Positions 4,752 through 9,179 of a stretch of DNA of 25,154 nt are shown here, piece by piece. Both the position numbers and the translations under genes were made by a program. The number at the start of each line of letters is the position of its first letter. Position 1 is the first letter of the stretch. This stretch comes from a virus (taxonomy: Duplodnaviria; Heunggongvirae; Uroviricota; Caudoviricetes), in the IMG/VR virus record IMGVR_UViG_2534681662_000015, one strand, 5' to 3'. Below the pieces are notes generated by a model that did no database searches, had not been told where the DNA came from, and saw only the letters and a program-made list of their open reading frames with translations.

Positions 4752-4912
4752 ACAGCTCCCCGTTTATTATTTATCTCCTCAGCCAGCCGCTGTGCTTTCA
4801 GGGGATTTCGGATAACAGAAAGGCCGGGAAATACCCAGCCTCGCTTCGTAACGGAGTAGACGAAAGTGATCGTGCCTACGCGGATATTATCGTGAGGATG
4901 TTTCATCGCCAT
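4724..4912 (-). CDS. Small early-left protein, lambda Orf60a-like (62 aa)
   Basis: 62-aa ORF immediately downstream of exo on the minus strand, overlapping the exo stop, as in lambda. Confidence 0.6.
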
Positions 4913-5583
4913 TGCTCCCCAAATACAAAACCAATTTCAGCCAGTGCCTCGTCCATTTTTTCGATGAACTCCGGCACCATCTCGTCAAAACTCGCCATGT
5001 AATTTTCATCCCGCTCAACCACGACATAATGCAGGCCTTCACGCTTCATTCGTGGGTCATAGTTGGCAAAGTACCAGGCATCTTTTCGCGTCACCCACAT
5101 GCTGTACTGCACCTGGGCCATGTAAGCTGACTTTATGGCCTCGAAACCACCGAGCCGGAATTTCATGAAATCCCGGGAGGTAAACGGGCATTTCAGTTCA
5201 AGGCCGTTGCCGTCACTGCATAAACCATCGGGAGAGCAGGCGGTGCGCATACTTTCGTCGCGATAGATGATCGGGGATTCAGTAACATTCACGCCGGAAG
5301 TAAACTCAAACAGGGCTCTGGCGTCGTTCTCGTACTGTTTTCCCCAGGCCAGCGCCTTAGCATTAACTTCCGGAGCCACACCGGTGCAAACCTCAGCCAG
5401 CAGGGTGTGGAAGTAGGACATTTTCATGTCAGGCCACTTCTTTCCTGAGCGGGGCTTTGCTATCACGTTGTGAACTTCTGAAGCGGTGATGACGCCGAGC
5501 CGTAATTTGTGCCATGCATCATCCCCCTGTTCGACAGCTCTCACGTCGATCCCGGTACGCTGCAGGATAATGTCCGGTGTCAT
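4903..5583 (-). CDS. exo: Lambda exonuclease (Red-alpha)
   Basis: 226-aa ORF recognised as lambda Exo ([62 protein letters not shown]…); start overlaps the bet stop. Confidence 0.95.
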
Positions 5584-6365
5584 GCTGCCACCTTCTGCTC
5601 AGTGGCTTTCTGTTTCAGGAATCCAAGAGCTTTCACTGCTTCGGCCTGTGTCAGTTCTGACGATGCGCGAATGTCGCGGCGAAATATCTGGGAACAGAGC
5701 GGCAATAAGTCGTCATCCCATGTTTTATCCAGGGCGATCAGCAGAGTGTTAATCTCCTGCATGGTTTCATCGTTAACCGGAGTGATGTCGCGTTCCGGCT
5801 GACGTTCTGCAGTGTATGCAGTATTTTCGACAATGCGCTCGGCTTCATCCTTGTCATAGATACCAGCAAATCCGAAGGCCAGACGGGCACACTGAATCAT
5901 GGCTTTATGCCGTAACATCCGTTTGGGATGCGACTGCCACGGCCCCGTAATTTCTCTGCCTTCGCGAGTTTTGAATGGTTCGCGGCGGCATTCATCCATC
6001 CATTCGGTAACGCAGATCGGATGATTACGGTCCTTGCGGTAAATCCGGCATGTACAGGATTCATTGTCCTGCTCAAAGTCCATGCCATCAAACTGCTGGT
6101 TTTCATTGATGATGCGGGACCAGCCATCAACGCCCACCACCGGAACGATGCCGTTCTGCTTATCAGGGAAGGCGTAAATTTCTTTCGTCCACGGATTAAG
6201 GCCGTACTGGTTGGCGACGATCAACAATGCGATGAACTGCGCATCGCTGGCATCACCTTTAAATGCCGTCTGGCGAAGAGTGGTGATCAGTTCCTGTGGG
6301 TCGACAGAATCCATGCCGACACGTTCAGCCAGCTTCCCTGCCAGCGTTGCGAGTGCTGTACTCAT
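5580..6365 (-). CDS. bet: Lambda Beta single-strand annealing protein (Red-beta)
   Basis: 261-aa ORF recognised as lambda Bet ([68 protein letters not shown]…). Confidence 0.95.
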
Positions 6366-6370
6366 CCGTT

Positions 6371-6667
6371 TTATACCTCTGAATCAATATCAACCTGGTG
6401 GCGGGCAATAGTTTCAACCATGTACCGTATGTGTTCTGCCATGCGTTCCTGAAACTCAACATCGTCATCAAACGCACGGGTAATGGCTTTTTTGCTGGCC
6501 CCGTGGCGTTGCAAATGATCGATGCATAGCGATTCAAACAGGTGCTGGGGCAGGCCTTTTTCCATGTCGTCTGCCAGTTCTGCCTCTTTCTCTTCACGGG
6601 CGATCTGCTGGTAGTGACGCGCCCAGCTCTGAGCCTCAAGACGATCCTGAATGTAATAAGCGTTCAT
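6371..6667 (-). CDS. gam: Gam RecBCD inhibitor (98-aa GamS form)
   Basis: 98-aa [63 protein letters not shown]… recognised as lambda Gam; 5-nt gap to bet as in lambda. The in-frame upstream region hits a stop 18 codons up, so the long GamL form cannot be made. Confidence 0.9.
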
Positions 6668-6743
6668 GGCTGAACTCCTGAAAATGGCTGTGAAAATATC
6701 GCCCGCGAAATGCCAGGCTGATTAGGAAAACAGGAAAGGGGGG

Positions 6744-7034
6744 TTAGTGATTCAGGCCGTTACCGCGTCCGTCGAGAAAAACTTCCACGAGCAAATCACG
6801 GGTATAAGTGCGCTCGATGCCGCGATGCAGATAAAGCCGTCCGCGTAAATTAGCTGATGCAGTCCAGGTACCATCTTTGTGTTTGACCAGCATTCCTGGC
6901 ATGACCGCACCTCGATTAACGGTCTGCGTTCCGTAATGTTGATGAACCATAAAAACTCCTGCCCGTAAGCTGGGCTGCTGAACATATAAAGACTTCTGCG
7001 CGTATTCAGGCGGTGGATGGCCGCCGGTTGTCAT
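6744..7034 (-). CDS. Hypothetical early-left protein (96 aa); first gene downstream of the PL region
   Basis: ORF with an in-frame stop 8 codons upstream of its ATG and a GAGG SD; occupies the place where lambda has kil/cIII/ssb/ral/sieB/N but resembles none that I recognise; not Arg-rich like N. Confidence 0.5.
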   Translation of the reverse strand: MTTGGHPPPEYAQKSLYVQQPSLRAGVFMVHQHYGTQTVNRGAVMPGMLVKHKDGTWTASANLRGRLYLHRGIERTYTRDLLVEVFLDGRGNGLNH

Positions 7035-7171
7035 AACTAAGCCGCCTCGTTGAAGCGACTAAGGTATGAAATGTTGAGTTAATTTCAGCTGGTCACACCG
7101 ACGTTCACGCGTCCGTTTCACCCCTCGCACTCCCCGAAGCCTGCTGAAATTCAAACTGCGGATCTAAGCGG

Positions 7172-7222
7172 TCATCGCAACGGTGAATCAGGTAGTTGCC
7201 GTATCGTTGTGTTGTTGCGATG
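7172..7222 (-). promoter_or_regulatory. Large palindrome in the predicted PL leader (candidate RNA structure, terminator or protein-binding site)
   Basis: Perfect 10-bp inverted repeat TCATCGCAAC … GTTGCGATGA flanking 31 bp with further internal complementarity (CAACGG/CGTTG); lies immediately downstream of the predicted PL -10. Confidence 0.4.
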
Positions 7223-7300
7223 AACTTATTTAAAACTATAGTTGTTTTATCGTCAACAACAAAAGTTGTTTTATTGGTTGTTTTAGATATAACTGGTTGT
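7222..7300 (-). promoter_or_regulatory. Putative PL promoter with OL operator array
   Basis: Minus-strand TTGACG-17bp-TTAAAT, embedded in repeated GTTGTT/AACAAC half-sites (~7241, 7255, 7265, 7277, 7295); the module TTGACGATAAAACAACTATAGTTTTAAAT is near-identical to the PR module at 8284-8312. Confidence 0.5.
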
Positions 7301-7397
7301 ATTTAGGATGGATTTATTTTGTGACTTGAATCGCATAGCGATAACTGAAGCGAGGTTATGGTGGTTTTTTTAACGGTGTGTGTGATGAGGGGAGGGC

Positions 7398-7424
7398 AAA
7401 AGAAAACCCGGCACGGTGACCGGG
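7398..7424 (-). terminator. Putative terminator downstream of the repressor gene
   Basis: CCCGG-N8-CCGGG hairpin followed on the minus strand by TTTTCTTTT; about 120 bp after the cI-like stop. Confidence 0.35.
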
Positions 7425-7545
7425 ATTCTTACGCCGTTAGGTAAAGATATTATTGCGGTGGCTTAATATTACTACCTAGAGCAAAGATAGGAATTAGTTC
7501 TTTACTGAATGAGCACAATGCCCAGTTGATAATTTTTAATTGGTA

Positions 7546-8235
7546 CTACCCATGCTTCCTATATGTCTGCGGCATGCTCCCAATAACCTTACCGAAGATG
7601 AACACCCGGTTCATCTCGTCTTTCTCGATCGGGTCCCACGGTGAGTAGCTTTTGTTATCAGAGATGACCAGCAGCTTATTCTTCATCATTTGCAGGCGCT
7701 TTACATGGGCTGTGTCGTCGTACAGAAACGCATAGATACCATCACCGTCGAAAGATTTAACTGTGATATCAACGAACAGCAGATCACCTGGTTCGATCGT
7801 TCCTGACATGCTGTCACCACGCACGTTAATGATGCGGATATTTTCCGCCTTCCTACCATCGAACATGTGACGAGCATCGTCAAACGAGTACTCAACCGAG
7901 CGTAGAACTTCTACAAACTCACGGTTGATGACTCCCGGCCCAGCACTGACTTCTATATCAAGAACGTCAATCTTGAAGTATTTGGAATGGCTGACAGTTG
8001 ATTGTATTGGTTGCACTGTACTGTCTGACATATTTCCAACGCCAGAAGATAACCATTCTGCGCGCACACCCAAAGCGTTCGCGATCTCCACGATTTTAGT
8101 TGTTTGATTAGCTTTCCCTGTTTCGATTTTCTGAATAGCAGCCTGGCTAACCCCGACCAAATCCCCAAGCGCCTTTTGTGTAAGGCCTCGCGCTAATCTG
8201 GCTTCTTTAAGTCTTTCTGAGAGTGTTGTTTTCAT
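7546..8235 (-). CDS. CI-like prophage repressor (N-terminal XRE-type HTH, C-terminal LexA/S24 autopeptidase domain); non-lambda immunity
   Basis: HTH segment LTQKALGDLVGVSQAAIQKIETGK; S24 signatures GDSM (Ser nucleophile) and HVKRLQ (Lys). Start taken at MKTTLSERL… (ATG 8233-8235); the ORF stays open to an ATG at 8301 that lies inside the operator palindrome. Confidence 0.85.
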   Translation of the reverse strand: MKTTLSERLKEARLARGLTQKALGDLVGVSQAAIQKIETGKANQTTKIVEIANALGVRAEWLSSGVGNMSDSTVQPIQSTVSHSKYFKIDVLDIEVSAGPGVINREFVEVLRSVEYSFDDARHMFDGRKAENIRIINVRGDSMSGTIEPGDLLFVDITVKSFDGDGIYAFLYDDTAHVKRLQMMKNKLLVISDNKSYSPWDPIEKDEMNRVFIFGKVIGSMPQTYRKHG

Positions 8236-8339
8236 AGTCCAAATGTACAACCAAGGTTTTATTCCATCAAACGAAAATGGTTGTTGACTAAAAACAACCA
8301 TAGTTTTAATCTTGATTCAAATTAACCACGGAGGTTGTT
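8236..8339 (+). promoter_or_regulatory. OR operator / PR (and divergent PRM) region
   Basis: Palindrome ATGGTTGTT-N7-AACAACCAT (8277-8301) overlapping TTGACT (8284-8289) with TAATCT 17 bp downstream; GGAGG SD precedes the cro-like ATG at 8340. Confidence 0.6.
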
Positions 8340-8570
8340 ATGAACCCAGCTATCAAAACAGCGATCAATATCGTTGGTTCACAAAAGAAACTGGGCGCTG
8401 CTTGCGAAGTTTCACAGCAGGCCGTCTATAAGTGGCTTCACAACAAAGCAAAGGTATCCCCTGAACATGTCGGCAGCATTGTTACGGCTACTGGTGGAGT
8501 AGTGAAGGCATACCAGATTCGCCCGGATCTTCCGAAGTTGTTTCCACACACCGAAAAGAACGCAGCTTAA
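8340..8570 (+). CDS. Cro-like HTH protein (YdaS/DUF1019-type Cro analog)
   Basis: 76-aa ORF divergent from the repressor, HTH-like segment QKKLGAACEVSQQAVYKWLHNK; strong GGAGG SD. Confidence 0.75.
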   Translation: MNPAIKTAINIVGSQKKLGAACEVSQQAVYKWLHNKAKVSPEHVGSIVTATGGVVKAYQIRPDLPKLFPHTEKNAA

Positions 8571-8582
8571 ATTTCCATTTCA

Positions 8583-8596
8583 CGCTCTTTAACAAT
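8583..8596 (+). promoter_or_regulatory. boxA-like antitermination element (rrn-type boxA) at the nutR position
   Basis: CGCTCTTTAACAAT matches the rRNA-operon boxA consensus (TGCTCTTTAACAA) at 12 of 13 positions and sits 13 nt after the cro-like stop; no boxB-like hairpin is evident next to it. Confidence 0.5.
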
Positions 8597-8639: not shown

Positions 8640-9179
8640 ATGCAACCACTTACATACCAACAGACTAGCGGATTTAGCCCGACTGCGGTGATAAATCGTT
8701 CTCAAACAAAACAGGTGCCAGGCCACGAAAAAATCCGTGATGCCGTCCGCGCCTGGTCGGCTGTAGATAATCAGGATGTCGTTGCCACACTCATTGTGAA
8801 TGAGTATCGGGAGCAGGGCGGCGGCACCATCGATTTCCCTGATGATGTCAGCCGTGCACGCCAGAAGCTGTTCCGCTTCCTCGATAACAAATTCGATTCT
8901 GAAAAATACCGAAATAATGTGCGTGAACTGACCCCGGCAATTCTGGCGGTACTACCGCTGGAATATCGCGGTTACCTGGTTGAGCAGGATAGCTTCATGG
9001 CTAGGGTGGCTGAAATGGAAAAGGAACTCAGTGAGGCAAAACAGGCTGTCATTCTCAACGCACCACGCCACCAGAAACTGAAGGAAATTAGTGAAGGTAT
9101 TGTGTCGATGTTTCGTGTGGACCCAGATCTGGCTAGTCCATTGATGGCGATGGTTACTACCATGCTGGGGGCGATATGA
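8640..9179 (+). CDS. YdaT-like protein (CII-analog regulator of Rac/CP-933P-type switch regions)
   Basis: 179-aa ORF with motifs recalled from E. coli YdaT (…REQGGG…, …LTPAILAVLPLEYR…); located exactly where lambda has cII; AGGAG SD. Confidence 0.65.
   Translation: MQPLTYQQTSGFSPTAVINRSQTKQVPGHEKIRDAVRAWSAVDNQDVVATLIVNEYREQGGGTIDFPDDVSRARQKLFRFLDNKFDSEKYRNNVRELTPAILAVLPLEYRGYLVEQDSFMARVAEMEKELSEAKQAVILNAPRHQKLKEISEGIVSMFRVDPDLASPLMAMVTTMLGAI

Follow-up and report, generated by a model that had tools for sequence, protein, structure and literature searches.

A KilR-type kil gene in the slot of lambda kil in a lambda-like phage without N

In this paper we examine the gene that lies directly upstream of gam in a lambda-like phage genome, and we identify it as a kil gene of the KilR type. 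Very probably it encodes a division inhibitor of 68 amino acids and is the first gene of the leftward operon of a phage that lacks N, occupying the slot in which lambda carries its own kil. The DNA analysed, which we call the window, is the whole stretch of 25,154 nucleotides of the IMG/VR record IMGVR_UViG_2534681662_000015, and all positions given below are positions in it. It represents the early region of a temperate, DLP12/lambda-like phage that has no N. Between 6300 and 7600 it is 99.2% identical to Escherichia phage PhiR34_1, which has DLP12-type genes in its right arm and lambda-type virion genes. The gene list of the window gives exo (4903-5583) and bet (5580-6365) on the minus strand, and on the plus strand, after the repressor region, it gives cro, a YdaT/CII-like gene and homologues of O and P. 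The order cI - pL - kil - gam - bet - exo is common to PhiR34_1, PhiR47_2, Perceval and E. coli strain 600468 and is also found in Turner, 4A7, Lambda_4C10 and others, and in some phages of this layout defence genes are inserted between cI and pL. The layout is thus a known and widespread architecture and the finding an ordinary one: the gene, its family, its name and its setting are already in public databases, and the closest phage has been sequenced.

Between gam and the repressor gene there is just one ORF of appreciable length, with 96 codons, at 6744-7034 on the minus strand, where the original prediction had placed it as a gene of unknown family. The family can now be named. The ORF matches PHROG 294, 'Kil protein for bacterial septation inhibition', with an E value of 1.2e-38, a family that also takes in Rac KilR (7.5e-35) and the Kil of HK225 (1.7e-34). 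It further matches the NCBIfam profile NF008465 (KilR, 'FtsZ inhibitor protein'; E 4e-17), with residues 29-96 corresponding to profile positions 1-70. In a direct comparison Rac KilR aligns with the ORF at 36% identity over 61 aa (BLASTP, E 3e-12), and hhalign gives the pair a probability of 97.4%. A Pfam profile search of the ORF with a local copy gave no match; the Pfam family PF27398 is known through the homologues, being precomputed on nearly all of the 120 closest ones in the databases, many of which are named 'cell division inhibitor protein' or 'prophage Kil protein'. On sequence grounds we therefore assign the gene to the KilR type, and by this homology the earlier guess that the lone gene between pL and gam has a Kil-like or host-takeover role proves a good one.

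Scored against NF008465, the 96-aa form reaches 61.9 bits and the 68-aa form 63.1 bits, and both values are below the curated cutoff of 92 bits, the score at or above which the Rac KilR subfamily proper is defined. We therefore regard the window protein as belonging to a sister subfamily of Rac KilR and not as its orthologue. Relatives were found by tblastn in 146 phage records, including HK225, HK639, SEN34, Stx2a phages and Klebsiella phages. The family is narrow: of 1.84 billion cluster representatives, 66 match it at E <= 1e-3. Across enterobacterial genera the KilR frame is conserved at 68-88% protein identity with conservative substitutions, and the core motifs of the family are kept along the whole length of the protein. 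Remote homology searches and structure prediction, which had been proposed as checks on the 96-aa protein, returned these KilR-family matches together with a beta-rich AlphaFold2 model (pLDDT 86, six strands, low-confidence ends) that fits the small KilR-family form of about 62-75 aa. The predicted fold resembles a small SH3-like beta-barrel with a floppy C-terminal tail, and a viral fold search gave a single match, an uncharacterised family member from Pantoea phage LIET2. The tail, DGRGNGLNH, has 9 residues, compared with 12 of different sequence in Rac KilR. We found no experiment on the 68-aa subfamily in the literature, and Rac KilR is the sole characterised family member that we found there.

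The 96-codon frame exists as predicted, but the alignments, the conserved start and RefSeq favour a shorter product that begins at an internal ATG at 6950. In every alignment, whether to a profile or to a single sequence, the match starts at M29 of the ORF, the counterpart of M1 in KilR, and homologues with curated names are 66-68 aa long. RefSeq places the gene at 6744-6950 on the minus strand as WP_000233576.1, 'phage encoded cell division inhibitor protein'. An AGGAG Shine-Dalgarno sequence (6960-6956) stands 5 nt before this ATG, and the equivalent ATG with its Shine-Dalgarno sequence is kept in 23 of 24 species loci (22 of these loci belonging to named enterobacterial genera), where the sequence further upstream is unrelated; the start is kept in distant homologues as well. 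The 28 in-frame codons above it (6951-7034, minus strand) are not conserved outside E. coli and are probably an untranslated leader. In 59 related leaders the frame upstream of the ATG stays open for 17, 26, 27, 36, 47, 49, 67 or 71 codons, and substitutions in the extension are spread 9/9/13 over the three codon positions, with no third-position bias. We conclude that the real product is most likely the 68-aa protein, and that the 96-codon ORF is probably the 68-codon gene plus a stretch of leader that happens to be in frame.

Two other readings of the locus have to be weighed against a 68-aa product. The full 96-aa protein might be made from the ATG at 7034, with a functional N-terminal extension of 28 residues (MTTGGHPPPEYAQK...). 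The frame is open, a GAGG lies 9 nt upstream of that ATG so that some translation is possible, the exact protein sequence occurs on at least 1000 public contigs, with some entries named 'prophage Kil protein', and the first 9 codons are shared with HK225 at the nucleotide level. In HK225 itself, however, and in an Enterobacteriaceae locus (L272), this ATG starts a short frame of its own, which ends before kil, and in all other genera the extension is missing or unrelated. Its GAGG is moreover buried in a 9-bp hairpin, its length varies from 17 to 71 codons in close relatives without codon-position bias, and Rac KilR and every profile start only at M29, so we judge a functional 96-aa form to be very unlikely. 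A 77-codon ORF in another frame (6752-6985) also exists and is the CDS annotated in the GenBank record of PhiR34_1 (PV340559). It has no family match of its own, the cross-genus protein conservation of 68-88% identity sits in the KilR frame instead, and both RefSeq and most phage records call the KilR frame; that the 77-codon ORF is the real gene is hardly credible.

The 68-aa gene ends where homology to lambda begins. By BLASTN the window from 6750 to 4555 corresponds to lambda 33193-31000 without interruption at 97.4% identity, and in the rest of the early region, from 6750 to 8400, no lambda homology was found at E <= 1e-3. The mosaic junction (6744-6750) falls on the sequence T-CAC-TAA, in which CAC-TAA is the last sense codon and stop codon both of lambda kil (...KSIH*) and of the window ORF (...GLNH*). 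The start of the BLASTN match at 6750 therefore puts the junction at the 3' end and stop codon of kil, about 28 codons above the start of the short form of gam, gamS, and not within the 5' region of gam or 18 codons above gamS, where it had been placed before. Complete E. coli genomes show the same boundary. The query 6668-7260 is matched over its full length by genomes that carry the window-type cassette, whereas in genomes annotated with lambda-type kil ('kil: host cell division inhibitory peptide Kil') the match is limited to 6750-6668 (query 511-593). The KilR-type gene occupies the exact slot of lambda kil, with alternative cassettes joined to gam-bet-exo at the shared CAC-TAA. The original prediction that one gene replaces the whole block from kil to N can be kept for cIII, ea10, ral, sieB and N, which are absent; as judged from the sequence, kil itself has not been lost, and the lambda-type gene has been swapped for a KilR-type one. 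A useful result is the precise placing of the junction of this swap at a stop codon that both types share.

From MNAYY onward the Gam frame matches lambda. The gene encodes only the GamS form of this RecBCD inhibitor (6371-6667, minus strand; 98 aa), lies within the 97.4% identical block and matches Pfam PF06064 over residues 1-98 (E 3.6e-65). On our comparison, the GamS of the window differs from that of lambda at three of 98 residues. The 76-nt spacer between kil and gam (6668-6743) is homologous to the 5' part of the annotated lambda gamL, and alignment with lambda shows that the frame is broken by an extra T in the run at 6681-6684 and an extra C in the run at 6738-6743. The spacer also contains the gamS Shine-Dalgarno sequence, CAGGAG (6680-6675), and a weak terminator-like hairpin found by a terminator scan (6718-6701). 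Reading upward from gamS in frame there are 18 open codons without an ATG, closed by a TAA at 6724-6722, so the stop noted earlier at this distance is real; for the long form we looked for about 40 codons, open and with an ATG, above the GamS start, and the 40-codon extension of lambda GamL cannot be encoded in the window. The claim that GamL is missing here is thus borne out. The reason is that the start codon of GamL lay in lambda-type kil and that the spacer has 1-nt insertions, and it is these insertions, not the mosaic junction, that produce the stop 18 codons up.

The loss of the GamL frame is not tied to the exchange of kil. Phage 933W, which has lambda-type kil, shows the same frame break and an identical 18-codon reading. 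We sampled 120 loci per spacer variant among the IMG/VR matches listed, which gave 228 informative loci. Within this sample of the matches listed, loci with the extra T had the GamL frame closed in 71 cases and open in 1 when kil was of the KilR type, closed in all 39 with lambda-type kil, and closed in the 1 locus with neither type. Loci with a lambda-like spacer had it open in 99 and closed in 9 when combined with lambda-type kil, and closed in all 8 with KilR-type kil. The combination of lambda-type kil, no extra T and an open GamL frame thus accounts for 99 of the 228 informative loci among the matches listed. Since 933W and the 39 loci with lambda-type kil share the extra T and lack the GamL frame, the loss of GamL does not require the kil swap. 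GamS is the product common to all sampled types, in line with the view that it is the active form of Gam, and we see here ordinary lambdoid variation. It also means that GamL is dispensable in nature, as many lambdoid phages cannot encode it.

What is known of the window protein's function comes from its relatives. Rac KilR (b1352, 73 aa) has a beta core flanked by disordered ends, of 7 residues at the N terminus and 12 at the C terminus (PMC12482147). Its C-terminal tail is essential for toxicity, with an effect that depends on tail length; Z-rings are disrupted at low expression of KilR, and at high expression MreB is disturbed too (PMC12482147). The window protein shares with it PHROG 294, homology over the full length, the same size class and a predicted beta-rich core with disordered ends. 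Both genes have the immunity region of a lambdoid prophage on one side and its recombination genes on the other, as is also the case in HK225 and HK639. The two differ in the tail, which ends in GNGLNH in the window and in KAESW in Rac, and in their neighbours: the window gene is followed by gam-bet-exo and stands directly downstream of pL, whereas kilR is followed by ydaE-racC-recE-recT and is separated from the repressor gene by sieB, ydaF, ydaG and kilS. Kil of lambda, a ZipA-dependent FtsZ inhibitor of 47 aa, resembles the window protein in having its gene in the same slot directly upstream of gam with the same CAC-TAA end, and in its annotated role, the block of host division from the pL operon. 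By sequence the two are not detectably similar, BLASTP giving no alignment at E <= 100, and lambda Kil belongs to other PHROGs (3924/2461/2055, compared with 294), and its gene overlaps cIII and the start of gamL behind N and tL1, while the window is without cIII and N. The closest comparison is with the 68-aa Kil of HK225, Perceval, 4A7, the PhiR phages and E. coli prophages (WP_000233576.1), which is identical or nearly so; the window gene is a member of this group, among whose records the annotated start or frame alone varies (68, 77, 96, 128 or 139 aa).

By analogy with Rac KilR, we suggest that window Kil would be the first product of the leftward operon, made from pL on prophage induction or infection, and that it would block Z-ring formation via FtsZ. 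At high dose it would possibly also disturb MreB organisation, and the host would form filaments while the phage replicates. The timing and the molecular target in this scheme are inferred from the characterised relative, and with a tail that is shorter than that of KilR and of different sequence, potency and the effect on MreB may differ. One may ask whether the protein is a KilR relative by descent that has taken on another job, such as superinfection exclusion or the takeover of a host target other than FtsZ. Its identity to Rac KilR is only 36% and its score lies below the NCBI subfamily cutoff; the tail, which is the active region of KilR, is where the two differ; an SH3-like barrel is a generic binding fold; and second targets are known for small phage division inhibitors, MreB for KilR and ZipA for lambda Kil (PMC12482147). 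The core motifs are nonetheless kept along the whole length, the gene sits in the genomic slot of both lambda kil and Rac kilR, and no evidence points to a different target. We therefore consider a changed function unlikely and prefer the reading of the gene as a division inhibitor.

Upstream of the gene, a putative pL promoter with AAAACAAC/GTTGTT operator repeats lies at 7228-7275 on the minus strand, with TTGACG at 7256-7251, and its arrangement GTTGTTGAC..AAAACAAC..ATAGTTTTA recurs in inverted form at pR (8280-8309). Further upstream, a terminator scan found an intrinsic terminator after the repressor gene (7407-7424, minus strand; CCCGGTCACCGTGCCGGG then TTTTCTTTT). The repressor is of the CI type, with Pfam HTH_3 and Peptidase_S24 domains, and from its second ATG it has 229 aa (7546-8235, minus strand), in agreement with the RefSeq gene of 690 nt. 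The longest ORF for it, 7546-8301 (251 aa), has its ATG within the palindrome of the pR promoter/operator (8277-8301) and would overlap pR; the start at 8235 (MKTTLSERL...) chosen by RefSeq is the more plausible one. Beyond cro, the gene in the cII position (8640-9179, plus strand; 179 aa) is called 'toxin YdaT domain-containing protein' in RefSeq and 'CII-like activator' in PHROG 163. With a YdaT/CII-like gene at this place, the immunity region follows the Rac layout of racR-ydaS-ydaT and not that of lambda with cII.

Between pL and kil, the leftward early transcript has a leader of about 190 nt (7035-7222, minus strand) that is shared by phages with different promoter/operator regions, these lying upstream of about 7222; among these phages mostly less than 10% of its sites are variable. 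Near its end it carries a 9-bp hairpin, AGTCGCTTC-AAC-GAGGCGGCT (7060-7040), which buries the GAGG upstream of the ATG at 7034. HK225 and L272 have this hairpin upstream of their KilR-type kil genes as well, in L272 close behind a terminator, and it has a short, sub-threshold resemblance to a lambda hairpin just upstream of cIII. The leader has no Rfam match and a folding z-score of -1.96. In 47 unique leader sequences we found one-sided transitions only and no two-sided compensatory changes, and a comparison with the DNA that precedes Rac kilR, the sRNA gene kilS included, gave no convincing alignment. Three candidate elements in the leader were considered, of which the first two were rejected and the third was not supported. 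For a put-like RNA, comparisons with HK022 putL, HK022 putR and HK639 putL were beaten by 11, 71 and 25 of 300 shuffles, whereas the comparison of HK022 putL with HK639 putL scored 66 and was beaten by none of 300. An Arg-rich ORF of 31 codons (7059-7154; ...RGVKRTRERR...) was considered as a mini-N. It has a TTG start with neither a Shine-Dalgarno sequence nor an ATG, it varies in length and contains indels, and its substitutions show no codon-position bias; it lies in the kil frame and is joined to kil in phages where the TAG at 7061-7059 is CAG. The third candidate was a regulatory upstream ORF with a PPP stalling motif (MTTGGHPPP), of which L272 keeps the hairpin alone and not the peptide.

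No ORF for N, cIII, ea10, ral or sieB was found between 7035 and 7545, and BLASTN found no lambda homology there. The ORFs of at least 30 aa in this interval are the 31-codon ORF just described and one of 36 aa, which also starts with TTG and runs antisense to the pL region. The same five genes are absent from a known lambdoid group comprising PhiR34_1 (99% identical), Perceval and 4A7. We looked for an N/nut module in the form of an N-like ORF together with boxA-boxB in both early operons, and did not find one. The window does contain an exact rrn-type boxA, CGCTCTTTAACAA, at 8583-8595 on the plus strand, 13 nt after the cro stop codon and thus in the nutR position; on reading the sequence we saw no boxB-like hairpin after it. 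This is the only exact boxA match in the window, where an exact match to a 12-mer is expected about 0.003 times. Among the IMG/VR matches listed, boxA is present in 27 of 64 informative loci with KilR-type kil, compared with 0 of 109 with lambda-type kil. The part of the leftward operon that separates exo from the int region contains hairpins that have U tracts and look like intrinsic terminators (4842-4820, 4247-4229 and 2735-2716, minus strand).

These features raise the question whether lambdoid phages with KilR-type kil and without N may run their early operons by an undescribed antitermination that needs no phage protein. In such a scheme the leader at 7222-7035, kept across immunity types, would work in cis as put RNAs do, but with a sequence of a new class, the boxA at 8583-8595 would recruit the host Nus complex on the rightward transcript, and read-through would be needed at the strong hairpins at 4247-4229 and 2735-2716, which would otherwise cut off expression of xis and int. 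We think this proposal improbable. Read-through in phages without N is nevertheless the sole part of the present results with some potential for novelty.

E. coli prophages very often carry a member of the 68-aa subfamily: of 5426 complete E. coli genomes, 2178 (about 40%) contain at least 80% of the window segment 6668-7260 with 95-100% identity. The practical outcome of our analysis is a correction, as the true gene has 68 codons in the KilR frame and several deposited records have a wrong frame or start. In the record of PhiR34_1 the 77-aa CDS at 6752-6985 on the minus strand is in the wrong frame, the records of PhiR47_2 and Perceval (PV340567, OV696612) give 'Kil' proteins of 128 and 139 aa with non-ATG starts, and other records have 96 aa under the names 'prophage Kil protein' or 'Membrane carboxypeptidase', compared with the 68 aa of RefSeq. 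Some public kil alleles are frameshifted (P0037, P0045, P0050, P0054, P0125) and switch to an alternative frame and back, which indicates that the gene has been inactivated in some prophages and is not always kept intact. We also observed kil at 100% and 85% identity on short contigs of two metagenome bins assigned to Bacillota and Atopobium (loci L250 and L259), and its presence in these bins probably reflects mis-binning or contamination.
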